Shown here one piece after another: positions 1 to 16,905 of a DNA stretch of 64,000 bases. The notes under the pieces were generated by a model. It saw nothing but the letters and a program-made list of their open reading frames with translations, did not search any database and was not told where the DNA came from. The position numbers were made by a program, and so were the translations under genes. The first letter of the stretch is position 1. Every line of letters starts with the position of its first letter. Origin of the DNA: Desulfobacterales bacterium (GTDB lineage: Bacteria; Desulfobacterota; Desulfobacteria; Desulfobacterales; C00003060); assembly GCA_030616475.1 (NCBI GenBank), contig JAUWXF010000001.1:6845-70844 (forward strand), written 5' to 3'.

Positions 1-1635
1 GTTGACGTAGCGCGGCTTTTTCCGGATTTTGACCTTGTAGTTGCCGACGAACCCCGATATCTCCACCACTTCGCTATAGGTATGCAGCTCGATATTTGGG
101 TTTTGCCCCACGGAGACCATCTTAGGGGTCCCGATGCAGGCAGCACAATCGAGGGTGGGAAAGGTCTTGTCAAACTGAAGCATATGGCCGCCAATGGTAG
201 GATCCCTTTCCACCAGATATGCCTTATGGCCGGAATCGGCTATGTCCAGCGCTGCCTGCATGCCCGCGATTCCGCCGCCCACAACCAGAACATCAGGATG
301 TACGCTCACCTCTCGGGGAGTAAAGGTTCGATGATATTTCACCCGGTGGATAGCCGCTGCGACCAATGTCTTTGCCTTCCTGGTAGCCTCGGCAGGATCC
401 TCGGTGACCCATGAAACCTGTTCGCGCACAGAGGCCATCTGTAGATGGTGAGGTTTGAGGCCTGCTCGTTGGCAGGCATCCTGAAAGATCTTTTCGTAAG
501 GTTTTGGGCTACAGGCAGCAACGACCACCCGATTCAGGCCAAGCTCTCTAATGTCCTTTTCAATCATCTCCACGCCAGGATCGTAACACATGAACTTATT
601 ATCCCTGGCCACCACCACATTCGGTTGCTTCCGGGCAAAGGCAATCACCTCCTCCACAGAGACCTTTTCCGGGATGTCAATCCCGCAATGACAGATATAG
701 AATCCTGTTTTGACGACCTCTCCAATTTCAGTCACAACGGGCCCAAGGATTTCTTTGGTGAGGGCTTCTCGTCTCTCCTTCAGGGCCCTCTCGACCCTTG
801 CCATGAACTCCTCCTCTGTGAATGGCTTGGGCAGATACTCGGCGACCCCTGTCTTCATGGCTTCGACCGCCGAGGGGATGCTTCCATATCCCGTGATGAC
901 GATAACCTCTGTTTCGGGTCTCTCACCCTTCAGCCGTTTGATCACCTCCATGCCATCCATATCTGGCAACCGGAGATCGGCTACCAATAAGTCAAAACTT
1001 TTGTGACTCAAGGTATCGATGGCGCTCTGTCCTGTCATGGCCAAATCCACGCCATAACCCTCTTCTCTGAGGACCATCCGAAGCCCCTGTGCTACACTCG
1101 ACTCATCATCCATAACGAGGACCTGGGGCCGACCGGCAGTATCATCCTCCATGGTTTCCTTTACTTGATCCATTTCCATCCCTGCATCCGCGGTCTCAAC
1201 AGGCTCAAGGATCTCTTTTGAGAGGGCTTCTCGTCTCTCCTTCATGGCCTTCTCGACCCTTGCCATGAACTCCTCCTCCGTGAAGGGCTTGGGCAGGTAG
1301 TCGGCGACCCCTGCCTTCATGGCTTCGACCGCGGAGGGGACGCTTGCATATCCCGTAATGACGATAACCCCGGTCTCGGGCCTCTCAGCCTTTATCCGTT
1401 TGATCACATCCATGCCGTCCATATCGGGCAACCGGAGATCGGCTACCAGGAGATCAAACTCTTTGTGACTCAAGGTATCGATGGCACTCTGTCCTGTCAT
1501 GGCCAAATCCACGCCATAACCCTGTTCCCGGAGGACCATCTGAAGTCCCTGTGCCACACTGGACTCATCATCCACCAGAAGGATTTGGGGCTGACCAGCG
1601 GCATCATCCCTAACGGCTTCACCTAACTGATTCAC
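1..1635 (-). CDS. REC-REC-HdrA-like fusion: two tandem receiver domains fused to the N-terminus of an HdrA/HdrL-type FAD/FeS oxidoreductase. The 3' part lies beyond the left window edge.
   Basis: Absent from the ORF track because there is no stop inside the window. My minus-strand translation is open from 1635 to 1. GTG at 1633-1635 is preceded by GGGGGA. Sequence reads ..ILLVDDESSVAQGL..DLRLPDMDGMDVIK..ITGYASV..LPKPF, then a second near-identical REC, then [43 protein letters not shown]. This is collinear with the N-terminus of the 12344..15757 product. Confidence 0.85.
   Translation of the reverse strand, partial: MNQLGEAVRDDAAGQPQILLVDDESSVAQGLQMVLREQGYGVDLAMTGQSAIDTLSHKEFDLLVADLRLPDMDGMDVIKRIKAERPETGVIVITGYASVPSAVEAMKAGVADYLPKPFTEEEFMARVEKAMKERREALSKEILEPVETADAGMEMDQVKETMEDDTAGRPQVLVMDDESSVAQGLRMVLREEGYGVDLAMTGQSAIDTLSHKSFDLLVADLRLPDMDGMEVIKRLKGERPETEVIVITGYGSIPSAVEAMKTGVAEYLPKPFTEEEFMARVERALKERREALTKEILGPVVTEIGEVVKTGFYICHCGIDIPEKVSVEEVIAFARKQPNVVVARDNKFMCYDPGVEMIEKDIRELGLNRVVVAACSPKPYEKIFQDACQRAGLKPHHLQMASVREQVSWVTEDPAEATRKAKTLVAAAIHRVKYHRTFTPREVSVHPDVLVVGGGIAGMQAALDIADSGHKAYLVERDPTIGGHMLQFDKTFPTLDCAACIGTPKMVSVGQNPNIELHTYSEVVEISGFVGNYKVKIRKKPRYVN
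745..1612 (-). repeat. Tandem duplication of the REC-coding segment (copies about 745..1150 and 1207..1612; period 462 nt = 154 codons)
   Basis: GAGGGCTTCTCGTCTCTCCTTCA starts at 760 and again at 1222. The two units stay alignable without gaps, with scattered substitutions (high identity by eye). Confidence 0.9.
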
Positions 1636-1714
1636 AGTGATTCCCCCTTTTTCAAAAAGATTGGGTTACATTTGAAAGACTTTCTCAACTGTTGAACTGT
1701 TGTGAAAGTATTAG

Positions 1715-1730
1715 AGCAAGTTTTGTTCCA
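1715..1730 (-). promoter_or_regulatory. Candidate sigma54 (-24/-12) promoter upstream of the REC-REC-HdrA gene
   Basis: The minus-strand reading is TGGAACAAAACTTGCT. GG and GC have the spacing of TGGCAC-N5-TTGCW. It lies about 80 nt upstream of GTG 1635 and downstream of an NtrC-type activator gene. Confidence 0.6.
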
Positions 1731-1906
1731 AATGAGTCGGTGCTAAGGATAGAAAAGCGGTCGGATGGTTTTATCAATTATATGAGGGAGTTAAGGCCAA
1801 CGAGGGAAAAGTTTACTAAAACCCCGAGGGGGCAAAGCGTATGAGACCTTATACGTCAAAAGGGAGTTAAAATATGAATCTGTGTATCATTTCAAGGGGT
1901 TGGGGC

Positions 1907-1930
1907 TGTATGGCCAAATATACACCTGGT
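1907..1930. promoter_or_regulatory. Candidate enhancer (UAS) for the NtrC-type activator
   Basis: Imperfect palindrome TGTATGGCCAAATATACA. AAATATACACCTGGT (1916..1930) recurs as AAATATACACCTTGGT at 19795..19810, upstream of the second sigma54 promoter. Confidence 0.4.
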
Positions 1931-1970
1931 GCCATGGTTTAGGGCTTACCAGCGACGTAACCGTTCACGT

Positions 1971-2080
1971 GGTGTTGGAGTGTTGGAGTACTGGAGTACT
2001 GGAGTGTTGGGAAAAGACATGAAATCCCGGAGGTTCTTATGCATTTGGTTTCCATTACTCCATTACTCCATCACTCCATT
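1971..2080. repeat. Stutter-hairpin element (GGAGTACTGG arm / CCATTACTCC arm)
   Basis: Left arm GGTGTTGGAGTGTTGGAGTACTGGAGTACTGGAGTGTTGG (1971..2010). Right arm CCATTACTCCATTACTCCATCACTCCATT (2052..2080) is its imperfect reverse complement. Confidence 0.8.
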
Positions 2081-2143
2081 GCCGCCAGGACTCACGGCAA
2101 TGCCAGACAACTAAGAATAACCAACTGTGACCTCAAGGCGCGC

Positions 2144-3586
2144 CTATTCGGTCTCTGCTTTGGTGGTTTTGGTCGGCAGGTGACGCTTTTTCATCAAGGC
2201 AGAAAAGTTGGGCCTCTGCATACCAACCCTCTGGGCTGCATGCGTGATGTTGCCATTGCAAGCCTTGAGGGCCTTGATAAGAAAGGCCTTTTCTATTTGC
2301 CCATAATGTTCTTCCAGGAGTTGCTTTTTAACGGCCTTGAGATCTTCCAGGGTCTCCGGGATTGAATCCCCCTTCAAGAATAGTTTCATTTGTGGCGGTT
2401 CCAACAGATCGAGGCTGTCTAGAATAACGCGATCAGCGCTGTCTAGAATAACGCGATCAGCCATGATCACCAGGCGTTCAATCACATTTTTGAGCTGACG
2501 CACGTTACCCGGCCATTCATGGTTCACCAGAATCTCCAGGGCATCGTGGGAGAATCCGTCGATCTTTTTTCCGGTCTTCCTGGAGAAATGTCTCAAAAAG
2601 TGGTAGGCGAGTTTAGGGATGTCTTTTTTTCTTTCCCGCAGCGGGGGGAGGAAAAGGGGAAATACGTTCAACCGGTAGAAGAGGTCTTCCCTGAAACTTC
2701 CCTCATCCACCATGGCCTTCAGATCCTTATTGGTGGCAGCAATGATCCTCGCATTAGTCTTTTTGAAATGACTTACACCTACAGGTTTGTACTCGTGTAC
2801 CTCCAGCACCCGTAGGAGCTTTCCCTGGATCTCCATGTTCAGGTTCGCCACATCGTCCAGAAAGAGGGTCCCGTCGTGAGCCACCTCAAAGATACCCGCT
2901 TTGTTTTGAATGGCCCCGGTGAAGGCCCCCTTGACGTGACCGAACAGTTCGCTTTCCAGGAGACCTGGAGATAGAGTGCTACAGTCCACAGCCACGAATT
3001 GCCTGGCAGCCCGCTCGCTGTGGACATGAATGGCCCTGGCGAATAGTTCCTTTCCGGTTCCACTGTCTCCATATATGAGCACCGTGCTGTCGGTAGGGGC
3101 AACCTTTCCAATCTGATCGAATATACTGAGGATCTTGGGGGTCTCTCCCACGATGTTGCTAAAGCCGAACCGATCAACGAGCTCTCTTCGGAGGAAAAGG
3201 TTTTCCTCCACCAGCCGTTTTTTCTCCATAGCCCTTTCCACGGCCAGCACGAGTTCATCGTCGGAGAAGGGCTTAGCGATGTAATCGACAGCCCCCGACT
3301 TCATGGCCTCTACCGCATTCTTGACAGTGGAATAACCGGTCATGACAATAACATACACGCCCCGTTTTTCCTTTCGGAGAGTCCGCAGGATCTCCATGCC
3401 GTCCAGATCAGGAAGCTTCATATCCAGCAGGATCAATTCGTATTCACCCTCCCTGATCGCTTCAAGACCGGCTCTGCCGTTCATTCGAAAGTCCACGACC
3501 GAATAGCCTCCCTCCGAAAGCGCCAGTCGGCATCCCTCGCACATGACTTGTTCATCGTCAATGATCAGAATTTTCACGGAATTCAT
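2144..3586 (-). CDS. Sigma54-dependent response regulator (NtrC family: REC + AAA+ + Fis-type HTH)
   Basis: 480-aa ORF with REC (ILIIDDE..LLDMKLPDLDG..KPF), Walker A GDSGTGKE, the GAFTGA loop (GHVKGAFTGA) and a C-terminal HTH ITHAAQRVGMQRPNF. Confidence 0.95.
   Translation of the reverse strand: MNSVKILIIDDEQVMCEGCRLALSEGGYSVVDFRMNGRAGLEAIREGEYELILLDMKLPDLDGMEILRTLRKEKRGVYVIVMTGYSTVKNAVEAMKSGAVDYIAKPFSDDELVLAVERAMEKKRLVEENLFLRRELVDRFGFSNIVGETPKILSIFDQIGKVAPTDSTVLIYGDSGTGKELFARAIHVHSERAARQFVAVDCSTLSPGLLESELFGHVKGAFTGAIQNKAGIFEVAHDGTLFLDDVANLNMEIQGKLLRVLEVHEYKPVGVSHFKKTNARIIAATNKDLKAMVDEGSFREDLFYRLNVFPLFLPPLRERKKDIPKLAYHFLRHFSRKTGKKIDGFSHDALEILVNHEWPGNVRQLKNVIERLVIMADRVILDSADRVILDSLDLLEPPQMKLFLKGDSIPETLEDLKAVKKQLLEEHYGQIEKAFLIKALKACNGNITHAAQRVGMQRPNFSALMKKRHLPTKTTKAETE
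2414..2461 (-). repeat. Perfect 24-nt tandem duplication inside the NtrC-type gene (duplicates ADRVILDS)
   Basis: GCTGTCTAGAATAACGCGATCAGC occurs at 2414..2437 and again at 2438..2461. The protein reads MADRVILDSADRVILDSLDLL. Confidence 0.95.
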
Positions 3587-3603
3587 TTTCGTGACCCTTT
3601 GAT

Positions 3604-4815
3604 TTACTGTCTGAGAGGGATGTCAACGGTAAAGCGGGTTCCATGCCCCGGTTCGCTCCGGACCTGGATATTCCCCTCGTGTTTCTGGACGATTGCATAA
3701 CTCACGGACAGCCCCAGGCCGGTCCCGTTCGTCTTGGTGGAGAAGAAGGGTTCAAAGATTGTGGGCATATCATCTTGTGCGATACCACATCCGGTGTCCT
3801 TAATCTCGATCCTCTGGCTGTCTTGGTCCGAACTCATACGGCTCCGGATGCTGATCACTCCATTTTCTTGAATCGCTTCCACGGCGTTGATCAAAAGGTT
3901 CACAAAAACCTGCTGCAACTGGTTGGGGTCAAGCAGAGTGTCCGGCATCTTGCTATATAAATCCTTCTCCACCTGTATGTGATGGAGGCGAAACTCGTTA
4001 TCCAAAACTCTCACAGCCTTGTTGATAATGTGATTGATGTTGGCCAAAACCACTACTGGCTCCCTATCCCTGGAGAATTCCAAAAGATCCTGGATAATGA
4101 CTTTACACCGTTGGGTCTCGCGAATGATGACGTCCAGGCCTTCTGCAAGTGGCCCCTCATCCGGGACTTTTTTGCGCATATTTGTGCTGAAAAGCAGGAT
4201 ACCACCCAGAGGGTTGTTGATCTCATGAGCAATCCCTGCCGCCATTCGGCACAGGGCTGAAAGCTTTTCAGTATGGGAGGATAGCTGTTGGTATTGGGCC
4301 CGCTGCTCTTCGATCAAGCGGGCCTTATCGATCGCGCAGGCACATTGCTCACCTACGGCCACTACGAAATCGAGTTCCTCGCTGGAAAACTCCCTTGGTT
4401 CCTCGAAACAGACTCGAATGATCCCGATGATATCATCTTTGAGGGTGAGGGGGACATCCAATACCATACGGATCCCTTCTTCCAATGCCTCATCAGGGTA
4501 CATAATACGAGGGTCTGCCAGAATATCATCTATGACAATGACCTTGTTTTCCCGGCATAAATCCGTGATGATTTTATGGCTGAAGACGGGTCCTTTGGCA
4601 AGGTATTTCTCGCTCAATCCATATGCAGCGAACAGTTCCAACTTGTCTGTTGCGAGGTTGAGGATCCGGAGGATGGCGCCTTTAGCGCCGAGGACTTTGG
4701 TGGACTTCCAGACCACCAGCTCCATTACTTCCGTCAAATCCGTGCTGGAATGCACCACTTTGCTGATATCCCGAAAGATAGCGTAATATGTCTTGAAATC
4801 CATCGAAGAGTTCAT
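3604..4815 (-). CDS. Sensor histidine kinase with an N-terminal GAF-like domain
   Basis: 403-aa ORF with H-box AAGIAHEINNPLGG and N/G boxes NLLINAVEA, DTGCGI, GTGLGLS. It ends 18 nt upstream of the NtrC-type gene on the same strand. Confidence 0.9.
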   Translation of the reverse strand: MNSSMDFKTYYAIFRDISKVVHSSTDLTEVMELVVWKSTKVLGAKGAILRILNLATDKLELFAAYGLSEKYLAKGPVFSHKIITDLCRENKVIVIDDILADPRIMYPDEALEEGIRMVLDVPLTLKDDIIGIIRVCFEEPREFSSEELDFVVAVGEQCACAIDKARLIEEQRAQYQQLSSHTEKLSALCRMAAGIAHEINNPLGGILLFSTNMRKKVPDEGPLAEGLDVIIRETQRCKVIIQDLLEFSRDREPVVVLANINHIINKAVRVLDNEFRLHHIQVEKDLYSKMPDTLLDPNQLQQVFVNLLINAVEAIQENGVISIRSRMSSDQDSQRIEIKDTGCGIAQDDMPTIFEPFFSTKTNGTGLGLSVSYAIVQKHEGNIQVRSEPGHGTRFTVDIPLRQ

Positions 4816-4909: not shown

Positions 4910-5102
4910 AGGTTTAGGGGGATTTTTATGTTTGCGCAATGCAACTTTGACGGAGCCCTGCCCTTTTTCGGTAGTAGAGTATAGGAAGAAACGGCCTTAT
5001 GTGTCAACGAAAATACAGCCGCCACCGGCAACTACGATCTCGCGCCTTGCATCTGGAGCTTTCTACTTTGCCGTCCATTTTTGGATCTTTTGCGAAGCCG
5101 TC

Positions 5103-5327: not shown

Positions 5328-6203
5328 CTATTTCTCCGTCTTCAGTTTGGCCCGAAACGAGTCGGTGAAGGCAAGATTGAGGTTCAGTTTCAGCTCTTTC
5401 TCAGACAGACCAAGTGCAAGCCCCATGAGCTGAGGAAGATACAGGATAGAGATATCCAACGCCTCACCGCGCGTCTTCGAGACCTTGGCTTGATAACCTT
5501 CCAGGTTGATCTGGCACATGGGACATACTGTGACGATGCAGTCGGCCCCCCTGGCTGCCGCAAGGATGCCGGTCACACGCTCTATGGCAACATTTTTCTT
5601 GGTTGACATCAACGCCGCACCACAACACTTGGCCCCCACGGTCCAGGGATGGACTTCAGCACCCAGGGCCTCGATCAAAGGTTCCATGGATTGGGGTTGC
5701 TCCGGATCATCAAAGGAGCAGTAAGGGCGCAGGGCCTGACAGCCGTAGTAAGGGGCTACTCGCACACCCGAGAGCTTTCGCTTCACCCGGGCATCGATAT
5801 CCTCAGGATCAAAATCAGTGGCCACCACGTCCAGGAGATGGCGTGCCTTGATCCCGCCTTTGTAGCTCAAACCTTCTTCACTCAGAACCTCATTGATCTT
5901 ATTTAGGAGTTCCGGGTCCTGCTTGACGTGTTCTCCAACCCTTGCAAGATTTAAATAGCAGGCGCTGCACGGAATCAAGAAATCGGCCCCAACTTCCATC
6001 CGCTCTCCCAGGGCCAGATTGCGAGCAGCCAGGACGATGGCGAGCAGATAGCTGGTCGCCTCGGCAGCGCTGGCCCCACAGCACGTCCAGTCTTCTAACT
6101 CCACCAATTCTGAACCGAGCGCCTGCATCGCGGCCCGAGTCGACACGTTATATTCGAGGGCCGTGCCCTGCAGGGAACAGCCTGAATAGTAAATGTACTT
6201 CAT
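5328..6203 (-). CDS. HdrB-like subunit (two CCG domains)
   Basis: 291-aa ORF with DWTCCGAS and GAKCCGAA CCG motifs plus PCSACY and VCPMCQ. It overlaps the preceding hdrC-like stop by 4 nt. Confidence 0.9.
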   Translation of the reverse strand: MKYIYYSGCSLQGTALEYNVSTRAAMQALGSELVELEDWTCCGASAAEATSYLLAIVLAARNLALGERMEVGADFLIPCSACYLNLARVGEHVKQDPELLNKINEVLSEEGLSYKGGIKARHLLDVVATDFDPEDIDARVKRKLSGVRVAPYYGCQALRPYCSFDDPEQPQSMEPLIEALGAEVHPWTVGAKCCGAALMSTKKNVAIERVTGILAAARGADCIVTVCPMCQINLEGYQAKVSKTRGEALDISILYLPQLMGLALGLSEKELKLNLNLAFTDSFRAKLKTEK

Positions 6204-6778
6204 CGCTTCGCCTCCAGCTCCTCCACCTTGCGAAACATCGCATCAAGCCTCCCTTTTCCAAAGAACTTCGGCATCTCAAGGGAGACCTTGCCTTTGCCCA
6301 TGAGCTTCAGCCCCAGAGAAGCAAACTTGAAGGGGAGAAAAGGGTTTTTCATGGCGAGGAAATAGCGGTTCATGAACTCCATCTCCCTCACCCGGCCATA
6401 GCGCCGCACAGTATCCATGAAACTCTTATAGAATTGAATGCTGCTTTTGTACATCTCTATGCCTTCGGCTGCGGCTATCCTCTTAAGAGCACCAATGGTC
6501 TCCGTCAGAGGAAGGCCACGCGGACAGCGGAGCGTACAGAAATAGCACGCTGAGCAAAGGTAAAAGGTTTTGCTGTTGAAGATCTCGTCTTTCTGTCCTA
6601 GTTGGGCCAACCGCCACAACTGCCTGGGCGTATAGTCCATGGCAGAAGCATTGGGACAAGAGCCACTACAGGTACCGCACTGCATACAGGCCTGAATCTT
6701 TTCCTGGATAGATGCCATGGCATCCGATGCAGCCGATTCATAAGCCTGGCTGGTTAGATCTAGCTGCTGGGCGCTCAT
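6200..6778 (-). CDS. HdrC-like subunit (2x[4Fe-4S])
   Basis: 192-aa ORF with CMQCGTCSGSCP and CSACYFCTLRCP motifs, immediately upstream of hdrB-like. Confidence 0.9.
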   Translation of the reverse strand: MSAQQLDLTSQAYESAASDAMASIQEKIQACMQCGTCSGSCPNASAMDYTPRQLWRLAQLGQKDEIFNSKTFYLCSACYFCTLRCPRGLPLTETIGALKRIAAAEGIEMYKSSIQFYKSFMDTVRRYGRVREMEFMNRYFLAMKNPFLPFKFASLGLKLMGKGKVSLEMPKFFGKGRLDAMFRKVEELEAKR

Positions 6779-7066: not shown

Positions 7067-10000
7067 CTAAAAAGCCCCTTCCAGGGCGTCATCAATGACC
7101 TCAAACATCTGCTGGTCCCGATACCCCAGAAGCACCGAGGCGCTGTTGGGACACACTGCCGCACAAGAACCGCACCCCTGGCACATAAGCGTGTCCACCA
7201 GGATCTTCTCCTGCTCCTCATCATGCCATCTGGCCCCATAGGGACAGGCAGCAATGCACTGTTCGCACAGGGAGCAAAGACTGTGACGCACTTCGGCCAC
7301 GATGCCGCCTGCGGCCACCTGTTCGCTGCTCAGGATCCTGAGGGCACGCTGGGCGGCCGCCTCGGCCATGGCAATGGACTCTTTTATGGAACGGGGCGAA
7401 TGTGCCATGCCGCACGTAAAGATCCCTTCCTTCAGGAAATCCACCGGACGCCATTTAGATTCGGCTTCCTGGAAAAAGCCGTCCTCGTCCACCTCAACCC
7501 CGAATATCTCTGCGAGCTTTTTGTGGTCGCCCGGGATGACTCCAGTGCTGGGCACAAGTGCGAGCTTTTTCTGGTCGCCAGCAACGATCCCTGTGCTGAG
7601 CACAAGCAGGTCTGGCCGCAGCACAATTTCCCGGCCAAGGATTGGATCAATGGCGGAAATGCGTGGGCGGCCATTTTCAACCGTTACCTGGGGCTTTTCG
7701 CTCACTTCGTACTGTATAAAGAGCACCCCGGCCTGACGGGCCCTGGTATAATAAGCCTCCATGAACCCATAGGCCATGATGTCTCTGTAAAAGATGTAAA
7801 CCTGGATCTCAGGGTTTTGTTCCTTGAGGTAGAGGGCATTTTTCAGGGCCGAGGCACAGCAGATCCGGCTACAGTAATTGCGTGGTTCTTCCCTGGAGTC
7901 CACGCACTGGATCATTGCCACCACACCAAGGCCGGCAGGGGCCAGGGTTCCATCTGCAAGCTTCTGCTCAAATTCGTGCTGGGTGACGATCGCCTCGCTT
8001 TGTCCATAAGAGTAAGATTCGGTCTTGGCTTCATGAGCGCCGGTAGCCAGCACCGCCACGCCGTGCTCCAGGGTTTCGCCTGCCCCCTCCGCCTTCTCAA
8101 TGGTCGTGATAAAACGGCCGACTCGCCCCTCGGAGTGGATCACCCGCGCCTTCTTATAAACATGGATCTGCGGATGCTTTTCCACCCCGGAGATTGTCTT
8201 CTCCAGAAGCTCCTGGGGTGAATCCCCTTCAAGAGTCCGATGCAACAAGCGGACATTGCCTCCCAATTCATCTGCCTGTTCCACCAGGCCCACCTCAAAG
8301 CCGTGGTCGGCAATGGCAAGGGCTGCGGTCATCCCCGCAATACCGCCTCCCACAACCAGCGCCTTCTGGATGACCGGAGTAGTGGGTACTGGCAATGGGT
8401 CCTTGCCCTTCAGCTTGCCAACGCCCATGGCTATCGTGGCACGAATATCCCGACCTGCCTGCTCCTTATCCGCATCGTGGCCGGGAAATACCGCGGTTCG
8501 GATGTCCACCACATCCATGAGCGCCGGGTGAAGCCCAACCGCCCCACCCAATTCCTGAAGTTTTTTCGTATACACGTAGGGCATACAAGCGCCAATCAGA
8601 ACTCGATTCGCCTTGGTGTCCTGCAATTTCTCTTGAAGTTCATTCCAGCCCTCCTGGGTACAGACGCGCTCGATGCGCTGAACTGGACCCACGGAGTTAA
8701 GATCTGTGAGGCTTGCTTCCAGTGCTTCTATATTGACTACTTCTGTTAGGGCATCTCCGCAGGTACAAAGCGCTACAAAGACCTGCGGCGGTTCCCGTGA
8801 AACATCGCGAAACTCTGGTTGCCCCGGAGGCACCTCCGCCAGGCTGCCCCCCTTGGCATGAATCAGGCTGGATGCTGTTAGGGCGGCTGAACTTGCCTGG
8901 ATAACCGACTCGGAGATATCCTTTAGGCCGGAGAAGGACCCCCCAACAAGGATTCCTTCCTGGGCGGTGCGGCTTAAGGAAAAGCTTTCGGGGTGGCAGA
9001 AACCCCATGGATTCAGATCAAGTCCGGCGATTTCCGCCAAGGTCTCGGTCCCTTTAGAGGGCCTCTGGCCCGCTGCAAGTACCACCAGGTCGAAAACCTC
9101 TTCATGTAGCTCGCCGGCCACATCCGCATACCGAATTGCCAGGTCGCCATCCGTGCCTGCGTCTACAACCGAATGGACCCGGCATCTTTGAAAGCGGACC
9201 CCTTGTTCCTTTTCAGCCTGATCCCTGTAACGCTGGAAGTTCTTCCCAAAGGTGCGCATGTCCATATAAAAGATGGTCGTTTCCGCTTCACCCCCGCTAC
9301 GCTCCTTTGCCAGCAACGCTTCTTTGATAGCGAACATGCAGCAGGCAGAGGAGCAGAAGTCGGCATTGTGCTGCGGATCGCGTGACCCTACACACTGGAG
9401 CCAGGCCACCCTGCGGACCTCTTTGCCGTCGCTTGGCCGCAAGAGCCTTCCCTGATTTGGCCCGCTGCCGCTGACCCCCCGCTCGAACTCAACACTGGTA
9501 ACAACATTGGGAAGCACACCGTATCCGTAAGTGTTCGTGCCCGTGGCCGGGTCAAAGGAGGCAAACCCCGCAGCAAGAACCACTGCCCCAACTTCAATTT
9601 GCCGCTCTCCGGCGCGCTCAATTTTCTGGTGAAGTTCAACCACCAACGGAACCAGGGTATCCGGGTCAAAAGGCTTCATCAAGTACTCAAGGGCGCCGAT
9701 CTTCATCGCTTCCACGGCCGTCTCCACCGTGGCATAGGCGGTCATCATTACGACCGGGAGATCAGGGCGCATCTCTTTGGTCCGTTTTAGGACCTCCACA
9801 CCATCAATGCCCGGCATCTTGATGTCCAGCAGCACCAGATTGAAGGCCTCTTCCCGCAGCTTGTCCAGGGTTTCAGTTCCCGATTCGGCAGTATCCACCC
9901 GGAAGCCCTCATCCTCCAACCACTCTTTGAGTGAATCACGAACAACCAGTTCATCGTCCACGACCAGAATACGAAATGCCCGGCGCACCTCCACACCGAA

Positions 10001-10543
10001 GTCAATGGCATTGGTGGGACAGACCTTTTCACATTCTCCGCACAGGGTGCAAGAGGCCATGTCCACCACATAAGTGTTTGGAATATTATGGGGTACCGGC
10101 AGGTAAATCGCCTTTCTCCTGGTCAGACCGGCATTAAACTCATCAGGGGCCTCCGCCGGACAGACCCGGGAACACTCCCCGCAGCCGATACAACGCTCGG
10201 GATCCACCATGGTCGGTTTCTGACGCAGGGTGACCAGGAATTTTCCCGGCTCTCCTTCCATTGCCGACAGTTCTGTTGAAAGTAAGATATCAATGTTCTC
10301 GTGAAAGAGGCCCTTACGGAGACAATATTGTGAGGATCTATCGCGCTCCACCAGGGGAAGCATCCTGCACATTCCGCAGTGGTCGCTTGGAAACTGGTAA
10401 TCGAGTTGCATCAGGGTACCGCCCAGATTCGGGGCCTTGTCGATGAGTGTTACATGGTAGCCCACTTCTGCCAGGTCAAGAGCTGAACGGATGCCGCTGA
10501 TTCCGGCTCCCACCACCAAAGCTGAGCCAATCTTTTTCTTCAT
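7067..10543 (-). CDS. Giant double HdrA-like flavoprotein (QmoA-like + QmoB-like halves) with an internal receiver (REC) domain
   Basis: 1158-aa ORF. The N-terminal half has GAGISG, DHCGMC and two CxxCxxCxxxCP motifs. A complete REC (ILVVDDE..LLDIKMPGIDG..MTAY..KPF, about nt 9614..9976) is inserted. The C-terminal half has [19 protein letters not shown] and two terminal 4Fe-4S motifs. Confidence 0.9.
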   Translation of the reverse strand: MKKKIGSALVVGAGISGIRSALDLAEVGYHVTLIDKAPNLGGTLMQLDYQFPSDHCGMCRMLPLVERDRSSQYCLRKGLFHENIDILLSTELSAMEGEPGKFLVTLRQKPTMVDPERCIGCGECSRVCPAEAPDEFNAGLTRRKAIYLPVPHNIPNTYVVDMASCTLCGECEKVCPTNAIDFGVEVRRAFRILVVDDELVVRDSLKEWLEDEGFRVDTAESGTETLDKLREEAFNLVLLDIKMPGIDGVEVLKRTKEMRPDLPVVMMTAYATVETAVEAMKIGALEYLMKPFDPDTLVPLVVELHQKIERAGERQIEVGAVVLAAGFASFDPATGTNTYGYGVLPNVVTSVEFERGVSGSGPNQGRLLRPSDGKEVRRVAWLQCVGSRDPQHNADFCSSACCMFAIKEALLAKERSGGEAETTIFYMDMRTFGKNFQRYRDQAEKEQGVRFQRCRVHSVVDAGTDGDLAIRYADVAGELHEEVFDLVVLAAGQRPSKGTETLAEIAGLDLNPWGFCHPESFSLSRTAQEGILVGGSFSGLKDISESVIQASSAALTASSLIHAKGGSLAEVPPGQPEFRDVSREPPQVFVALCTCGDALTEVVNIEALEASLTDLNSVGPVQRIERVCTQEGWNELQEKLQDTKANRVLIGACMPYVYTKKLQELGGAVGLHPALMDVVDIRTAVFPGHDADKEQAGRDIRATIAMGVGKLKGKDPLPVPTTPVIQKALVVGGGIAGMTAALAIADHGFEVGLVEQADELGGNVRLLHRTLEGDSPQELLEKTISGVEKHPQIHVYKKARVIHSEGRVGRFITTIEKAEGAGETLEHGVAVLATGAHEAKTESYSYGQSEAIVTQHEFEQKLADGTLAPAGLGVVAMIQCVDSREEPRNYCSRICCASALKNALYLKEQNPEIQVYIFYRDIMAYGFMEAYYTRARQAGVLFIQYEVSEKPQVTVENGRPRISAIDPILGREIVLRPDLLVLSTGIVAGDQKKLALVPSTGVIPGDHKKLAEIFGVEVDEDGFFQEAESKWRPVDFLKEGIFTCGMAHSPRSIKESIAMAEAAAQRALRILSSEQVAAGGIVAEVRHSLCSLCEQCIAACPYGARWHDEEQEKILVDTLMCQGCGSCAAVCPNSASVLLGYRDQQMFEVIDDALEGAF
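7511..7606 (-). repeat. Imperfect 48-nt tandem duplication inside the giant hdrA-like gene
   Basis: TGCGAGCTTTTTGTGGTCGCCCGGGATGACTCCAGTGCTGGGCACAAG (7511..7558) compares with TGCGAGCTTTTTCTGGTCGCCAGCAACGATCCCTGTGCTGAGCACAAG (7559..7606). The protein reads STGIVAGDQKKLALVPSTGVIPGDHKKLAEIF. Confidence 0.85.
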
Positions 10544-12246: not shown

Positions 12247-12346
12247 TGGAATAATGGAATGTTGGAATATTGGAATATTGGAAACAAAAGCCGCAATCAG
12301 TTGTTCCCGATGCTACATTCCGCATTCCGCATTCCGCATTCCATTA
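12247..12346. repeat. Stutter-hairpin element (GGAATATTGG arm / CATTCCG arm) at the 3' end of the hdrL-like gene
   Basis: The arms are TGGAATAATGGAATGTTGGAATATTGGAATATTGGAAAC and CATTCCGCATTCCGCATTCCGCATTCCATTA. In the minus (mRNA) sense the mismatches become G-U pairs. Confidence 0.8.
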
Positions 12347-15300
12347 TATACCCACCGCACTGAGCGCATCCATGATGCCGTCGAGCTCTGCAAAGATTTG
12401 CTTCTCTTTGAAATGTCTGACCTGCGCAGCGCCGCTCGGGCAGAATCCGGCACAGCTCCCGCATCCCTTACAAAGGGCTTCGTTTACTACCGAGACTCCT
12501 CTTCGTGCATCAAACTCAATGGCGGTGTAAGGACACAGCCCGATGCAGGTCTGGCAGCCAGCGCATATATTCGGGTCTATCCAGGAAATGGTAGACGGAA
12601 TCTCCACACGTCCCAGCGTAGCCATGGCAAGGGCCTTGGCGGCTGCCCCGGATGCCTGGGCAACCGCGTCCGGAATATCTTTGGGTCCCTGGCAGGCGCC
12701 GGCCAAAAATACTCCGTCCGTAGCAGTATTCAGCGGTCCCAGCTTGGGGTGTTCCTCCAGGAAAAACCCATCTGCTCCCTGGCTGACCCCAAAAATCCTG
12801 CCTACATCAAGAGCATCCTTGCGGGCCTGCATGGCAACGCACAGGACCGCCATATCCACAGGCACTCTTAAACGCTTGCCCAGAAGGGTGTCTTCGCTGA
12901 TCATGATGAGCTTGTCTTCCTCTTCCGGTGTGATGGCCTGGTCGGTGATCTCGGCCACTTTGCCTCTGATGAAGGTGGTACCTTCTTCCTGACACCTCAG
13001 GTAAAACTCCTCGTAGCCTTTGCCAAAGCAGCGCATGTCAATGTAAAAATCATAGACTGGTGTTTCGTGTCCGACCTTTTCCTTGATCAGGTGGGTGTAC
13101 TTGATTGCATACATGCAGCAGACCCGTGAGCAGTATTCGTGGTAGTGCACATCCCGGCTGCCGATGCAGTGGACAATGGCCACGCTCTCCGGGGGCTTCG
13201 TAAGTTCTCCATTTTCGTCTCTGATAAGGATCTTGCCGCCGGTGGGCCCTGTGGCATTGCTGAGGCGCTCGAACTCGAGGCTGGTATAGACATTGGGATA
13301 GGTGCCGTAGCCAAACTGTTTCATGGGGGTGGGATCCAGGATGTCGTATCCGGTCGTCAGGATGATGCTGCCAACCTTGACCTCCATCTCTTCTTCCTTC
13401 ATGGTGTGGTCAACTGCCTTTGCCTCGCAGGCCTGCACGCACTCCATACATTCGCAGCAGATGCCGCAGTTGAGGCAGCGGTTTGCCTCCCGTTGTGCAT
13501 CTTCTTCTGAAAAGCCAAGCTCCACCTCGTCAAAGGAAGACGCCGCTTCCTTGGCGTCCCGATGCTGCGCCTTTGCCCGGGCTTCTGTGGCAAGGCCCTC
13601 AGGGATTTCTTTCCAATCCTGGCCCGGGGGTTCCTGGGCTGCCAACTCCTCGGCATAGAGGTCAAGATCCTCGCCATTGACGTAGCGGTGAATAGCCTCG
13701 ACCGCCTTGTGACCGTCTGCCACTGCCTCGATCACCGTTGCCGGGCCGGTGACCGCATCGCCCGCAGCAAACACATGGGGAATGGACGTCTGCATGGTGT
13801 GGCGGTTCACCACCAGAGTGCTCCGGCCGGTAACCTCCAAAGCGGCGCCATCTATGGCCCAGCCTACGTCTGTCTGCTGGCCAATGGCGGGAATGACCCC
13901 ATCGCAGTCGATCACAAACTCGGAGCCCTCCACAGGCACTGGTCGCCGCCTGCCGCTCTCATCAGGTGGTCCGAGTTCGGTGCGCACGCACTCGATGCCA
14001 GTGGCCTTTCCATCCGCACCAAGGATGCGCACAGGCGCGGTCAGGTAATGAATCTTGACACCTTCGGCCAGGGCGCCCTCGATCTCTTCGGCGAAAGCGG
14101 GCATCTCTTTTCGGCTGCGTCGATAGACCATACTCACCTCCTCACAGCCAAGCCGCTTGGCAACCCGGGCAGCATCAACGGCCACATTTCCGCCGCCAAT
14201 GATTACCGCGCGCCTGCCGGGCCGCTCCCGGCTACCCAAATTCACCTCCCTGAGAAAATCGACTGCATTCACCACACCCTCGAACTCATCCTCACCAGGG
14301 ACATTCGATTTCGTCCCGAGGTGCGCGCCAATCGCGAGGAAAACTGCGTTGAAGCCCTGCTTTTTGAGATCATCCAGCGTGAAGTCCGTACCTAAACGTT
14401 TGCCGGTTTCAGTCTCGATTCCCAGTCGGAGAATGTAATTTATCTCCCGGTCCAATACCTCCGGGGGCAGCCGGTAATCCGGGATACCCACCCGGAGCAT
14501 ACCGCCCAGCACCGGAAGCGCTTCAAAGATTGTCACCTGGTAGCCCTTAAGACGGAGATAGTAGGCCACAGTCAGCCCGGCCGGACCCGAACCAACCACA
14601 GCCACCTTTTCTGTGCGGTCCTCGATTTCCGGCAAAGGGAGATCATCAAGATTCACCTGGTCAGAGGCAAAACGCTTCAAATCCCTGATGGCAATCGCTT
14701 CATCCACATCCATCCTTCGGCATTTAGATTCGCACGGATGCGGGCAGACCCGTCCCAGGACCCCGGGCAAAGGGAGGCGCTCCATGATCAACTGGATAGC
14801 CTCCTTGTATTTGCCCTGGCCAATGAGCTGCACATAGCCCTGAATATTGATGCCTGCCGGACAGGTGGTCACGCAGGGGGCCCGGTCTTTCTTATCAACA
14901 CAGAAGGTGATCGGCACTGCCTGCGGAAAGGATCTGTAGATGGCCTTTCTCATCGCCAGACCCTCATCCCATTTGCTGGGCATTTCAACAGGACAGACCT
15001 TGGCGCATTCACCGCAGCCCGTGCAGACACCTTCTGTTACATACCGGGGCTTCCTGCGAATCTTCACAGTGAAGTTGCCAATATATCCCGATACCTCCTT
15101 AACCTCGCTATACGAGAGCAGCTCGACATTCGGATCCTGTGCCACAGAAACCATCTTTGGCGTTCCGATACAGGCAGCGCAGTCAAGTGTGGGAAAGGTC
15201 TTATCGAACTGGAGCATATGCCCGCCGATGGTGGTTTCTCTTTCCACCAGGTATACCTTATGGCCAGAGGCGCCTATGTCGAGCGATGCCTGCATGCCAG

Positions 15301-15757: not shown

Positions 15758-15765
15758 TCAACCTC

Positions 15766-15801
15766 ACGTTTCGGAATTTCTACAACCGATTGAGATCATA
15801 G
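15766..15801 (-). promoter_or_regulatory. Motif A copy, 9 nt upstream of the hdrL-like start
   Basis: ACGTTTCGGAATTTCTACAACCGATTGAGATCATAG. The core GTTGTAGAAATTCCGAAAC (minus sense) is a 19-bp imperfect palindrome, GTT-N3-GAA-N-TTC-N3-AAC. Confidence 0.45.
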
Positions 15802-15821
15802 TTTTTCTCTGGTATCTATTT

Positions 15822-15882
15822 ATGCCATCGCCACGCACAGTACACAGCTTTTATGCCAATATTCATGGCAATGGCGGGCAGG
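15822..15882. repeat. Family-6 hairpin (GCCATCGCC ... GGCAATGGCGGGCAGG)
   Basis: Related to CCTGCCCGCCATTGCC...GGCGATGGCAGGCGGG at 45868..45933 and to 56302..56367. Confidence 0.6.
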
Positions 15883-16062
15883 TAAAACCATCACTCTCTC
15901 CGAGGCGTAGGCTCTCCGAGCCGGAGGCCGGTACTCCAATTGGGCCGAAGCCCCTAAGTTCAATTACCACCACCAGAGGTAGTGGGTTGTATTGTTAATC
16001 CTTAAATCCGCCTGAGGCGGACTGGTCTAAGTGAGCTAAAGTGCCTAAAGTCCCTAAAATGC

Positions 16063-16368
16063 CTAAAGTTTAAGTGTTAACCTGCAACAGCAGACAAGGT
16101 TACTTGAATAGAATTGCCAGGTTGTATGATCTAATTGCGGTTCAGGCAGGGACTGGCCCGGACGGATATTTAGCATCTTCTGATAATGCAAGAAATTCTT
16201 CTTGGCTATGGCCGAGAGTATGACTGGAATGTGCTTCAATTGACCGTCGCTTTTGAGTTGCCGGCACATCTCAATGCCGCCGCCTTTTTTGGCAACATCA
16301 CGTCCGGAATGATGATGGGCAATGTCGAATATCCACCTGAATATGCGACATTTTTTGCCTTTGAACAA
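16063..16368 (-). pseudogene. Possible receiver-domain remnant
   Basis: GGGIEMCRQLKSDGQLKHIPVILSAIAKK resembles the central part of REC domains. The N-terminal acidic pocket and the C-terminal KPF are missing, and the ORF is isolated among repeats. Confidence 0.3.
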
Positions 16369-16474
16369 TGTGAGTATGAAGTGGCTTTCTTATACTAGTC
16401 TGGCTAAAATGTCAACAAAAAAAAAGAATTCCCCTCCCCTAGGGGCAATGCTGTTGAATTAAGGAGTTGGCTGG

Positions 16475-16523
16475 AAAAAATCAACCCCTCCTCAAAATCT
16501 GTCTTAGCCTTAAGACCAAAATC
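16475..16523 (-). repeat. Roughly 45-nt repeat shared with 22945..22989 (remnant of an epimerase/dehydratase 3' end)
   Basis: ATCAACCCCTCCTCAAAATCTGTCTTAGCCTTAAGACC occurs here and, with 2 substitutions, at 22950..22987. The minus-sense translation is GLKAKTDFEEGLI. Confidence 0.7.
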
Positions 16524-16802: not shown

Positions 16803-16837
16803 GCCTGAATATGACTTTTCGTTCAGGCACTAATTGG

Positions 16838-16873: not shown

Positions 16874-16905
16874 ATATTTATTCGTGCTATTGCAAGTTCG
16901 ATCAG

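Follow-up and report, generated by a model that had tools for sequence, protein, structure and literature searches.

At the left end of the 64,000-nt stretch of Desulfobacterales DNA that we analyzed (the window) lie a histidine kinase gene and an NtrC-type activator gene, both upstream of a gene that joins two receiver (REC) domains to HdrA-type sequence, and all on the minus strand (Table 1). This layout had been proposed in a first-pass annotation made from the sequence alone and was borne out by Pfam. The kinase matched GAF_2 (3.6e-12), HisKA (4e-14), and HATPase_c (2e-28); its top NCBIfam matches were AtoS and ZraS, and no hydrophobic stretch was seen in the translation of its N-terminus. 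The activator, which starts after a 17-nt gap from the kinase stop, matched Sigma54_activat (1e-64), Response_reg (2e-29), HTH_8 (4e-7), and AAA_lid_14, contains GAFTGA, and has AtoC and NtrC as its top NCBIfam matches. An activator was likewise found upstream of the REC-REC-HdrA genes of L003, L004, L006, L007, and the P0004 contig, or at least its HTH_8-containing C-terminal end where contigs are truncated. A candidate sigma-70-like promoter for the kinase–activator pair lies 163 nt 5' of the kinase start codon.

Table 1. Features at the left end of the window, by position
Feature	Position	Strand	Evidence
REC-REC-HdrA(N) gene, 5' 94% in window	1..1635	-	translation and homologues
HdrA FAD (thioredoxin-reductase-like) domain, first part	1..300	-	Pfam FAD_oxidored and 5odc_A alignment
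HdrA N-terminal [4Fe-4S] domain, aa 309–430	346..711	-	alignment to HdrA 5odc/8rvu from residue 5
REC2, aa 169–289, acceptor D220	769..1131	-	CheY alignment, AF2
REC1, aa 15–135, acceptor D66	1231..1593	-	Pfam, CheY alignment, AF2
Sigma-54 -24/-12 promoter TGGAACaaaacTTGCT, TGGAAC-N5-TTGCT	1715..1730	-	motif match and conservation
Candidate proximal upstream activator site, dyad GTAT-N8-ATAC	1839..1854	.	motif count and conservation
Candidate distal upstream activator site, dyad GTAT-N8-ATAC	1908..1923	.	motif count and conservation
Hairpin-forming short-repeat element, GGAGTAATGG... / ...CCAGTACTCC	1978..2101	-	RNA folding
NtrC/AtoC-type sigma-54 activator, REC-AAA+-HTH_8, 480 aa	2144..3586	-	Pfam and NCBIfam
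GAF-HisKA-HATPase_c histidine kinase, 403 aa, cytoplasmic, AtoS/ZraS-like	3604..4815	-	Pfam and NCBIfam
Candidate sigma-70-like promoter of kinase–activator pair, TTGACA-18-TATACT, 11/12	4978..5007	-	consensus scan only

The REC-REC-HdrA(N) gene starts at a GTG codon preceded by a GGGGG ribosome-binding site and was missing from the list of open reading frames because it runs off the left window edge. The source organism's full-length product (P0392) has 579 aa and is identical to the window translation over 545 aa, so the gene stops 34 codons beyond the edge; homologues have 585, 579, and 577 aa (P0001, P0002, and P0004). The domain check foreseen in the annotation returned two Response_reg stretches (1e-61) and the start of an FAD Rossmann fold (aa 448–485), FAD_oxidored and related families matching in their N-terminal stretch only, and the HdrA part was identified by alignment, with aa 309–562 matching residues 5–259 of solved HdrA (E 1e-85 to 1e-90). 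The first cluster domain (AF2 pLDDT ~90) has the cysteine motifs CHCG, FMCYD, and AACSP. The FAD part has a GGGIAG Rossmann start and FPTLDCAAC, whose second cysteine aligns with Cys197 of 5odc_A (residue number counted by hand), an N-terminal cluster cysteine that HdrA shares across its dimer (PMC9012536). Also present is the first cluster motif of the inserted ferredoxin domain, through which the low-potential branch of HdrA runs (PMC9012536). As judged by alignment, the window protein comprises only HdrA residues ~5–260, the N-terminal ~40% of HdrA; of the receiver-fused HdrA/HdrL enzyme first proposed, the order of REC-REC and HdrA-type sequence stands, and the complete flavoprotein does not. 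AF2 modeled three confident modules connected by low-confidence linkers (143–167 and 293–306), with a pTM of 0.32, so the model is uninformative on REC–enzyme contacts.

The sigma-54 promoter was present as annotated, with TGGAACaaaacTTGCT (read 1730..1715) differing at one position from TGGCAC-N5-TTGCW. Across the whole window, the motif had six matches versus 2.6 expected, a weakly significant excess, and the significance of this copy comes instead from its conserved position: five independent relatives (L001, L003, L004, L005, and L006; 56%–98% protein identity) have the motif 71–79 nt upstream of the start codon. L006, in which the start as called lies 118 nt away, fits this range only with an upstream in-frame ATG, which we read as the true start. 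Of 46 species genomes, 25 also have a motif ahead of their first REC gene. Applying the usual spacing from the -12 GC predicts a transcription start near 1704 and a 5' UTR of ~69 nt, and a consensus scan of the intergenic region (1636–2143) found no sigma-70-like site.

The GTAT-N8-ATAC dyad occurs three times in the 64 kb (0.29 expected), with two of the three copies upstream of the REC-REC-HdrA gene, centered ~124 bp (proximal) and ~193 bp (distal) upstream of the promoter center. The pair recurs with an identical 69-bp spacing in L003 and L006, where, by arithmetic on coordinates, the proximal dyad is also 124 bp from the promoter center, and 38 of the 46 species genomes have one or more dyads ahead of their first REC gene. 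Distant relatives share this geometry of promoter and dyads. Directly 3' of the activator stop is a short-repeat element that folds as RNA with an MFE of -53.9 kcal/mol (z = -4.2; 0/200 shuffles fold as well); the window and L001 differ in the pattern of its repeat units, and it is possibly an insulator or terminator.

The operon downstream, which lies outside the window, was read from a 98%-identical contig (L001) and a 72%-identical genome (L003). The gene order in the contig is REC-REC-HdrA(N), BfuC/NuoE-like, BfuB/NuoF-like, BfuA(N-terminus)-HdrA(246–652), and, last, a REC-PAS-HisKA-HATPase histidine kinase (the PAS kinase); the seven-gene module recurs in L003, at 72% identity and among other neighbors. 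Over its full length, BfuB matches solved BfuB/HydB chains (WorB, 9mqx_B: E 6e-238), and BfuC aligns with solved HydC/WorC chains. In the 600-aa BfuA–HdrA protein, residues 1–180 match BfuA/HydA/NuoG N-termini and residues 156–591 align with HdrA 246–652 (E 1e-110), and the protein is 62% identical to the C-half of an unsplit REC-REC-HdrA (P0007). HdrA is thus split and interrupted by a Bfu NADH/ferredoxin module, and the break falls exactly at the hot spot of the inserted ferredoxin domain, the site that NfnB occupies in HdrL. Two points of the first-pass annotation change as a result of this gene order in relatives. The gene starting at GTG 1635 does follow the promoter, whose predicted target is, however, an operon of five genes and not that single gene; and the full gene sought to the left of the window exists as the 579-aa product, with the remainder of HdrA encoded three genes further downstream. 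There are no HdrBC genes in the REC-REC-HdrA(N) operon. Neighboring HdrCB genes follow another HdrA. REC-bearing HdrA is not rare in databases: at 90% clustering, the neighboring HdrA of 1158 aa, whose REC is internal, has at least 120 relatives.

Both receivers retain the full phospho-acceptor set, as the annotation had stated: D22/D23, D66, T94, Y113, and K116 in REC1 and D176/D177, D220, T248, Y267, and K270 in REC2 align to CheY D12/D13/D57/T87/Y106/K109. AF2 gave REC1 a (beta-alpha)5 fold with an extended alpha5 over 120–142, and REC2 an alpha5 over 274–293 (pLDDT ~90 for both); the receivers of NtrC1 and DctD are among the best solved relatives of REC2. Among 53 copies of the subfamily, D57, T87, and K109 are each invariant (53/53), the aromatic switch residue is always Y or F (53/53), and D13 is kept in 52. 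This conservation suggests that REC1 and REC2 are fully phosphorylatable. The two are 86% identical as proteins in the window (~90% in coding DNA in L001), and the REC of the PAS kinase is 83%–85% identical to them, whereas that of the activator is only ~40% identical. Five alpha1 residues, at positions corresponding to Spo0F 14/15/18/21/22, read S, V, G, M, V in REC1, REC2, and the PAS-kinase REC and V, M, G, L, A in the activator REC. Third-position identity among the three similar RECs is 79%–86% within a genome versus 49%–63% between genomes. In this lineage, their 83%–91% similarity is partly the product of recent gene conversion and is therefore weak evidence for a shared partner.

The survey of this architecture that the annotation had proposed found members of the same REC subfamily in ~46 species genomes, most of them from Desulfobacterota, where they neighbor related genes for GAF kinases and activators. 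A majority of the 46 loci have an adjoining GAF-kinase match, and the same holds for an activator match; the arrangement of kinase, activator, promoter, and REC-REC-HdrA is real and evolutionarily conserved. The RECs vary in form. They stand alone as the first gene in L034 (227 aa), L024 (243 aa), and L036 (244 aa), and they are fused to BfuC in a formate dehydrogenase–Bfu enzyme locus (L024, 321 aa), as REC-REC to HdrL (a single 1453-aa ORF in L013; also P0006), to HdrA that is unsplit (P0007 and, with three RECs, P0121), and to split HdrA in the window. Such fused and free-standing forms amount to Rosetta-stone evidence, which suggests a phospho-regulated enzyme operon.

On balance, we modestly favor a reading in which the region is the regulatory end of an operon that encodes a chimeric HdrA–Bfu electron-bifurcating complex and is phospho-regulated in two tiers. 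In the first tier, whose elements are found in the sequence and whose function we infer, the soluble GAF kinase would sense a cytoplasmic signal and phosphorylate the adjacent NtrC/AtoC-type activator, which would bind both dyads and open the sigma-54 promoter. In the second, the two N-terminal receivers would be genuine phospho-acceptors on flexible linkers, and their phosphorylation state would alter the activity or assembly of the complex, suggesting direct switching of the HdrA–Bfu enzyme. The most likely route would be a REC dimer switch in the style of NtrC1/DctD that acts on the domain of the N-terminal cluster; in solved HdrA, this domain belongs to the low-potential branch and has a cysteine shared between the dimer partners (PMC9012536). 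The most parsimonious phosphodonor would be the GAF kinase, because related GAF kinases accompany the REC subfamily across the architectures examined; the PAS kinase, with its near-identical REC, may be a lineage-specific second input or relay. The shared alpha1 residues and the presence of the PAS kinase directly downstream in all HdrA-type loci examined argue for that kinase as donor instead. If the two-tier reading is true, one operon would be under phospho-control at the levels of both transcription and enzyme, with an electron-bifurcating enzyme as REC output. In line with the first-pass annotation, which knew of no functional description of the arrangement, our literature search found no paper describing a receiver-fused HdrA enzyme or its phospho-control.

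A stricter scheme, possible though on the unlikely side, has the GAF kinase alone phosphorylating both the activator and the enzyme RECs, with the PAS kinase being just another substrate or an unrelated passenger. Control of transcription and activity by one kinase is plausible at the family level: no kinase besides the GAF kinase was detected in the formate dehydrogenase–Bfu loci L024 and L034, which have the same REC subfamily; the free REC gene of L036 directly precedes the GAF kinase gene behind shared dyads, which we read as co-transcription; and a GAF-kinase match accompanies the subfamily in most loci. Yet the activator REC is distant from REC1 and REC2 and differs at four of the five alpha1 specificity positions, the GAF and PAS kinase cores are only 35% identical and diverge directly after the phospho-acceptor His, and even in L004, where REC-REC-HdrA is unsplit, a PAS kinase orthologue (56% identity) is encoded directly downstream. 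Single-domain receivers are established phosphate sinks in chemotaxis systems, and the RECs here could likewise drain phosphoryl groups from the kinase, so that build-up of the operon's first product would damp activator phosphorylation and limit expression, with the enzyme itself unregulated and the fusion only tying sink dosage to enzyme dosage. We consider this improbable. A REC gene or fusion is the first sigma-54 operon product in every locus examined, copy numbers of one to three would fit a dosage device, and free-standing versions exist, but a sink needs no covalent attachment, and the module was independently fused to BfuC, HdrA, HdrL, and split HdrA(N), with the linker-plus-alpha5 architecture kept at the junction.

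We give little credence to the RECs being phosphorylation-independent scaffolds or dimerization domains for complex assembly only. REC domains are common dimerization modules, and those modeled here are independent and flexibly tethered; however, pseudo-receivers typically lose catalytic residues, which the subfamily retains across many species, and kinase genes adjoin its loci. An assembly or annotation error, or a decaying HdrA pseudogene fragment, is scarcely credible as the source of the fusion and split, even though the gene is truncated relative to full HdrA, the related long-read contig L007 is visibly frameshifted, and REC-REC and HdrL are overlapping ORFs in L041. Independent assemblies from ENA, NCBI, and JGI contain the same 577–587-aa ORF, at 66%–98% identity; the complementary C-half is intact and conserved; and REC-less HdrA(N)-BfuC plus BfuA-HdrA(C) is common, with many clusters and 20 contigs for P0029 alone.

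Control of an Hdr-type operon by sigma-54 and a two-component system is already precedented in Desulfovibrio vulgaris, where DVU2394 regulates the alcohol dehydrogenase/heterodisulfide reductase operon DVU2405–2397 (Rajeev et al. 2011, PMC3333781), named flxABCD-hdrABC by Ramos et al. 2015 as cited in PMC6129605. Both systems place an NtrC-type activator and a sigma-54 promoter before a Hdr-type NADH-linked cytoplasmic redox operon of Desulfobacterota. The DVU2394 operon has complete HdrA plus HdrBC and Flx, in contrast to the Bfu-interrupted split HdrA here, and is reported with no enzyme-borne receiver and described with no second kinase, whereas loci of the window type have both.

Class II benzoyl-CoA reductase (Bam-Bfu, BamBCDEFGHI) likewise joins an HdrA-type bifurcating module, BamE, with BfuABC/NuoEFG-like modules (BamGHI) in one complex. 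In Bam these are separate complete subunits working with a tungsten catalytic unit, whereas here HdrA is cut and its C-half fused to BfuA; no BamB-like gene was seen in the loci examined. The passages of Schut et al. on Bam-Bfu propose two bifurcation steps in series (PMC9304861) and do not mention REC domains. HdrL, too, is an HdrA into which a foreign NAD(P)H module has been placed at the inserted ferredoxin domain, described as an NfnB-like insertion in a figure legend (PMC9012536, S8 Fig), and the window's own HdrL (15757..12344) has this layout; that insertion is NfnB/GltD-like and within one polypeptide, whereas here the insert consists of three Bfu genes and leaves the protein in physically separate pieces. 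BfuB and BfuC align full-length with WorABCSL (PDB 9MQX) and other solved BfuABC (NiFe-, FeFe-, and Nfn-Bfu), and the 600-aa protein, over its N-terminal ~180 aa, matches the corresponding part of the 247-aa WorA and of other solved BfuA. No chain of the solved Bfu complexes is described with a REC or an HdrA half, whereas here the third partner of the Bfu core would be an HdrA flavin module.

CheB, PleD, and RpfG are examples of enzymes under the control of REC domains. Like response regulators with non-DNA-binding outputs and the NtrC1/DctD switches, the window protein has a canonical REC N-terminal to its effector and an extended alpha5. Our search of the literature on receiver domains found no paper with an iron–sulfur bifurcating-flavoenzyme output. 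Unlike the outputs of other response regulators, the one in the window protein would be an iron–sulfur flavoenzyme subunit for electron bifurcation.

The first-pass annotation had proposed a sigma-54/two-component module driving a receiver-fused HdrA flavoprotein, a proposal that our sequence analysis partly supports. The kinase, the activator, the sigma-54 promoter and a gene joining two receiver (REC) domains to an HdrA-type part were all found on the minus strand by Pfam, consensus scan and translation (see table). The target gene begins at a GTG and is open at the window's left edge, for which reason it was omitted from the ORF listing. In its product, Pfam recognizes a pair of Response_reg domains (1e-61) and the initial beta-alpha-beta unit of an FAD domain, and residues 309–562 align to residues 5–259 of solved HdrA (E 1e-85 to 1e-90). 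The full length of the product is known from P0392: the source organism's 579-aa protein is identical to our translation over the window part, which places the gene end 34 codons beyond the window. Its closest homologs are 577–587 aa long, with identities of 98% (P0001), 72% (P0002) and 66% (P0004). The downstream operon was taken from two 98%-identical ENA contigs (L001 and L002); P0268 gave only a 5-kb Logan contig.

Features of the window, with coordinates
Feature	Coordinates	Strand	Basis or remark
Target gene, GTG start codon	1635	-	translation
Sigma-54 -24/-12 element TGGAACaaaacTTGCT (TGGAAC-N5-TTGCT; GG-N10-GC type)	1730..1715	-	consensus scan
Two GTAT-N8-ATAC dyads, candidate upstream activator sites	1839-1854, 1908-1923		dyad scan
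Hairpin-forming short repeats, GGAGTAATGG units facing CCAGTACTCC units	1978..2101		MFE -53.9, z -4.2
In-frame 24-nt tandem duplication in activator gene	2414..2461	-	ADRVILDS twice
REC-AAA+(Sigma54_activat)-HTH_8 activator, AtoC/NtrC-like	3586..2144	-	Pfam
GAF-HisKA-HATPase_c kinase	4815..3604	-	Pfam
Sigma-70-like site TTGACA-18-TATACT, 5' of kinase gene	5007..4978	-	consensus scan
HdrB-like gene	5328..6203		
HdrC-like gene	6200..6778		
1158-aa double HdrA-like protein	7067..10543	-	internal receiver, aa 192-298
Separate HdrL	15757..12344		NfnB-like module
1.4-kb spacer 5' of HdrL	15758..17150		short repeats
Second, paralogous cassette (whole)	17151..22798	-	
Second cassette: PAS kinase	22798..21359	-	
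Second cassette: NtrC-type activator	21369..19924	-	
Second cassette: two GTAT-N9-ATAC dyads	19786-19802, 19894-19910		3 in window vs 0.28 expected
Second cassette: sigma-54 motif TGGCACgcaacCTGCT	19709..19694	-	
Second cassette: 440-aa REC-[Cys-rich ~200-aa linker]-REC protein	19547..18225	-	
Second cassette: further PAS kinase	18215..17151	-	
HdrA-like and NfnB/GltD-like flavoprotein genes, and one NarI-like/FeS membrane protein gene	29378..31048, 32324..34000, 37672..40356, 41845..44748, 51020..53110, 24600..26003		

The annotation's assignment of an HdrA/HdrL-type enzyme holds for the stretch that aligns to HdrA 5–259; the protein is an incomplete HdrA, and the HdrL-type Fer4_20 plus Pyr_redox_2 (NfnB-like) module is absent from the target gene and its operon. 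Such a module does occur in the window's separate HdrL, in the homolog P0006 and in two related loci (L013 and L041). Of HdrA, the target product has no more than the N-terminal [4Fe-4S] domain, the beginning of the FAD domain and a single CxxCxxCxxxCP motif. Its DCAAC aligns to HdrA DCSIC (residues 194/197, numbering counted from the alignment to 5odc_A residues 5–259) and so retains the equivalent of Cys197, which in solved HdrA is the residue that completes the N-terminal cluster of the partner, a cluster lying on the low-potential branch (PMC9012536). A single polypeptide with the FAD, inserted ferredoxin and C-terminal ferredoxin domains of a complete HdrA was not found: the target product ends within the inserted ferredoxin domain, and the counterpart of HdrA 246–652 is found, joined to BfuA(N), in another protein of 600 aa.

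In both L001 and the more distant L003, the target gene is followed by a BfuC/NuoE-like gene (160–162 aa), a BfuB/NuoF-like gene (617 aa, with a [2Fe-2S] at the N-terminus, an FMN site and a pair of [4Fe-4S] motifs at the C-terminus), the 600-aa BfuA(N)-HdrA(C) gene and, last, a REC-PAS-HisKA-HATPase kinase gene (590–592 aa; the PAS kinase). Residues 1–180 of the 600-aa protein are BfuA/NuoG/HydA-like and residues 156–591 align to HdrA (E 1e-110), with 62% identity to the C-half of an unsplit relative. BfuB and BfuC align over their full lengths to solved Bfu enzymes, WorABCSL (9MQX) being the best match. Measured by Pfam and against solved BfuA/B/C chains on L001, outside the window (98% identical in the common gene), the subunits carry the cofactor sites of the Bfu family, namely the [2Fe-2S], FMN/NADH site, NADH_4Fe-4S and two C-terminal [4Fe-4S] of BfuB, the [2Fe-2S] of BfuC and the N-terminal clusters of BfuA. 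No HdrB or HdrC gene was found in the operon in L001 or L003. Together, the alignments of the N- and C-terminal pieces indicate that HdrA is split at its inserted ferredoxin domain, with the Bfu module in the gap.

Both receivers keep the full phospho-acceptor set, as the first-pass annotation had noted, and also an aromatic switch residue: D22/D23, acceptor D66, T94, aromatic switch Y113 and K116 in REC1, and D176/D177, acceptor D220, T248, aromatic switch Y267 and K270 in REC2. D57, T87 and K109 (CheY numbering) are invariant over 53 REC copies of the subfamily. These residues and a predicted (beta-alpha)5 fold (AF2 pLDDT ~90) suggest that REC1 and REC2 are phosphorylatable CheY-like receivers. 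The AF2 model comprises confident REC1, REC2 and HdrA N-domain modules, low-confidence linkers and extended alpha5 helices; its pTM of 0.32 makes the inter-domain geometry uninformative, so no REC–enzyme contacts can be read from it.

REC1 shares 86% identity with REC2, and both are 83%–85% identical to the N-terminal REC of the PAS kinase; their identity to the activator REC is only ∼40%, and that to the REC inside the 1158-aa HdrA is 39%. At the DNA level, similarity between the target gene and the PAS kinase gene of L001 starts ∼21 nt 5' of the kinase start codon and includes the ribosome-binding site (85%–86% DNA identity over this 5' end of the hybrid kinase gene). Since the similarity begins upstream of the kinase start codon, it indicates that a kinase 5' module was copied onto hdrA(N) and was the source of its RECs. 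An origin from the free-standing REC genes that precede an HdrA(N)-BfuC fusion in the REC-less relative L009 was rejected, identity being 28%–30%. The three REC-coding segments of the window lineage (L001 10001–10930 and 16199–16670) share 88%–91% DNA identity, and third-codon-position identity is 79%–86% within this lineage versus 49%–63% between lineages. The copies of L003, on the other hand, resemble one another no more than copies from different genomes do (third-position identity 49%–53%). This pattern points to recent gene conversion or re-duplication in the window lineage only.

The activator combines Response_reg (2e-29), Sigma54_activat (1e-64) with GAFTGA in the translation, and HTH_8 (4e-7), the composition of an NtrC-type protein. 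One-mismatch sigma-54 consensus matches are mildly enriched in the window (six vs. 2.6 expected), and we take the promoter to be real because of its conservation and not because of motif count. The -24/-12 element lies 71–79 nt 5' of the start codon in L001, L003, L004 and L005, whose products range from 98% (L001) and 72% (L003) identity to the window's protein to an unsplit HdrA (L004; 56%) and a REC-REC-HdrL type (L005). In L006, which encodes an HdrA(N)-BfuC fusion, the element lies 118 nt from the start as called, but within this range if an upstream in-frame ATG is the true start. Across the 46 species loci of the wider family, a sigma-54 motif lies 5' of the first REC gene in 25, and at least one GTAT-N8-ATAC dyad in 38. 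Three such dyads occur in the window against 0.29 expected, and the pair recurs in L003 and L006 with the same 69-bp spacing and, by coordinate arithmetic, an equal distance of 124 bp to the promoter centre. These candidate activator sites would fall in the ∼100–200 bp upstream range of NtrC-type units. No sigma-70-like site was found by consensus scan in the interval 1636–2143, and the usual -12 GC spacing predicts a transcription start near 1704. rpoN was not identified among the annotated ORFs of the window.

Two other features of this region deserve mention. The tandem duplication in the activator lies between the AAA+ lid and the HTH; the protein is 480 aa long in L001 and L002 too, and its L003 orthologue has 470 aa. 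The hairpin-forming repeats follow the activator stop, with a unit pattern that differs between the window and L001. Similar GGAATACTGG/CATTCC units, with a ∼30-nt direct plus inverted repeat, occur in the spacer 5' of HdrL, and our guess is that both elements are REP- or MITE-like.

A survey of the REC-HdrA architecture, envisaged in the first-pass annotation, was run on species-representative genomes with the REC2-junction region as query, followed by tblastn classification. It recovered the REC subfamily in ∼46 genomes, mostly Desulfobacterota, and most of the loci have a GAF-kinase match nearby and an activator with a core 65%–81% identical to the window's. The REC is followed by BfuC in 13 loci, by HdrA(N) in three and by a GAF kinase gene in 13; in 17 the next gene was unresolved or the contig ended. 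In one locus (L024), genes for a 243-aa free REC and a 321-aa fusion of REC to BfuC are accompanied by those for BfuB and a 926-aa BfuA-formate dehydrogenase; another (L034) has a free REC (227 aa), then BfuC, BfuB and BfuA-formate dehydrogenase. L013 has a single 1453-aa ORF with the tblastn order REC, REC, HdrA(N), a ∼1.5-kb gap and HdrA(C), which fits REC-REC-HdrL, and in L041 a REC-REC adjoins HdrL and a REC-PAS kinase. A class of RECs fused to the GAF kinase, inferred from tblastn spacing, was rejected: L036 has adjacent separate genes for the activator, REC (244 aa) and GAF kinase. Next in L036 come the gene for an HdrA-like protein and two ORFs (146 aa and 541 aa) of a formate dehydrogenase, read as a selenocysteine-type enzyme with an in-frame TGA. 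N-terminal REC(n)-HdrA is rare in an exhaustive representative library, with one full-length cluster (P0121; three RECs and HdrA) plus fragments; most apparent partial matches into the REC region there are double HdrA/HdrL proteins without REC. The representative search also returned a 1121-aa protein (P0250) in which Pfam detects six receiver-domain stretches in tandem and no further domain with confidence.

Which kinase would phosphorylate the receivers can be argued both ways. The cores of the GAF and PAS kinases are only 35% identical. Co-occurrence across the family speaks for the GAF kinase, local gene order and REC identity for the PAS kinase, which lies directly downstream even of an unsplit REC-REC-HdrA (56% identity); owing to the gene conversion in the window lineage, the similarity of the three RECs is down-weighted as evidence for a shared kinase. 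In the mechanism we consider, the GAF kinase would activate the activator and thereby sigma-54 transcription, and the tethered receivers, once phosphorylated, would modulate the enzyme. The favoured route is a dimer switch of the NtrC1/DctD type that would act on the cluster domain at the dimer interface; REC2's best solved relatives include the NtrC1 and DctD receivers. From comparative evidence, we hypothesize that electron-bifurcating enzymes may be under direct phospho-control. More broadly, and as a tentative reading that we hold to be possible rather than probable, the REC subfamily could be a portable phospho-switch, repeatedly attached to at least three kinds of bifurcating enzyme (formate dehydrogenase-Bfu, HdrA-Bfu and HdrL/HdrA) and gating bifurcation post-translationally under one GAF-kinase/sigma-54 cassette, with the split HdrA as a two-stage machine whose coupling is switched by Asp phosphorylation.

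The window contains further HdrA systems and is unusually dense in HdrA-like and NfnB/GltD-like flavoprotein genes. In the 1158-aa double HdrA-like protein, which is followed by HdrC- and HdrB-like genes, the internal receiver comes right after the ferredoxin motifs of the first half. This internal-REC HdrA architecture abounds: at the 90% identity level there are at least 120 clusters, each ∼1140 aa and nearly all with PF00072, and D57, T87 and K109 of the receiver are kept in 117–118 of 119. NCBI names these proteins "response regulator" or "FAD-dependent oxidoreductase," and our literature search found no description of them. The second cassette lies upstream of HdrL, FlpD-like, FrhB-like and internal-REC HdrA genes. 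The REC-less relatives L009–L012 (e.g., GCA_964561845.1, CAZLRK010000003.1) retain the same gene families as a single cluster, which comprises genes for a Tmc-like membrane complex, free RECs (116 aa and 146 aa), a REC-PAS kinase sharing 45% identity with its window-lineage counterpart, a PAS-input sigma-54 activator, an HdrA(N)-BfuC fusion of 450 aa, a BfuB-NfnB fusion of 1037 aa and a BfuA-HdrA(C) protein of 604 aa, continuing with FlpD-like, FrhB-like, HdrC-like and HdrB-like genes and then internal-REC HdrA. Such a single cluster suggests that the split HdrA-Bfu and internal-REC HdrA systems cooperate.

In sulfate reducers, syntrophs, acetogens and methanogens, it is the electron-bifurcating enzymes of the HdrA and Bfu types that set the energy economy, and the proposed switch, if true, would be the first case of a two-component system directly controlling flavin/FeS-based electron bifurcation. 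Receivers tethered to, or encoded just before, bifurcating subunits across many Desulfobacterota would offer a testable fast control of flux or direction, possibly used to avoid futile NADH/ferredoxin cycling. The parts are tractable: two soluble kinases, defined acceptor Asp residues, a defined promoter and candidate activator sites. The names now given to these proteins, "response regulator" or "FAD-dependent oxidoreductase", mask their nature.

The first-pass annotation knew of no functional description of such an arrangement. This stands for receivers on HdrA or BfuC, for which we found none in the literature, nor for a physical split of HdrA by Bfu genes or a dedicated REC subfamily with a GAF-kinase, activator and GTAT-N8-ATAC cassette. 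No relevant paper came from searches that paired receivers or response regulators with HdrA, heterodisulfide reductase or electron bifurcation, a search on HdrL/HdrA/NfnB returned nothing, and a bioRxiv survey of domain architectures in HdrA has no mention of receivers. It does not stand for the transcriptional part, as sigma-54 control of an Hdr operon has precedent: the DVU2394 system of D. vulgaris places an Hdr-type operon under sigma-54/two-component control, as here, and the regulation reported in the literature found for such an operon is transcriptional only (PMC3333781). The literature found has no report of these complexes being controlled directly at the post-translational level. 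For Desulfotignum phosphitoxidans, hdrA-nuoEFG gene clusters are on record, but only at annotation level (PMC4046663). A Bfu-split HdrA would be a third way of wiring HdrA to pyridine nucleotides, alongside the plain ferredoxin domain and an insertion of NfnB, and bears on the evolution of modular bifurcating enzymes. In Bam-Bfu, HdrA and a Bfu module are combined in one complex (PMC9304861), and in the HdrA of other organisms the inserted ferredoxin domain is where an NfnB-like module interrupts the protein (PMC9012536), the same insertion site as that of the Bfu module here.
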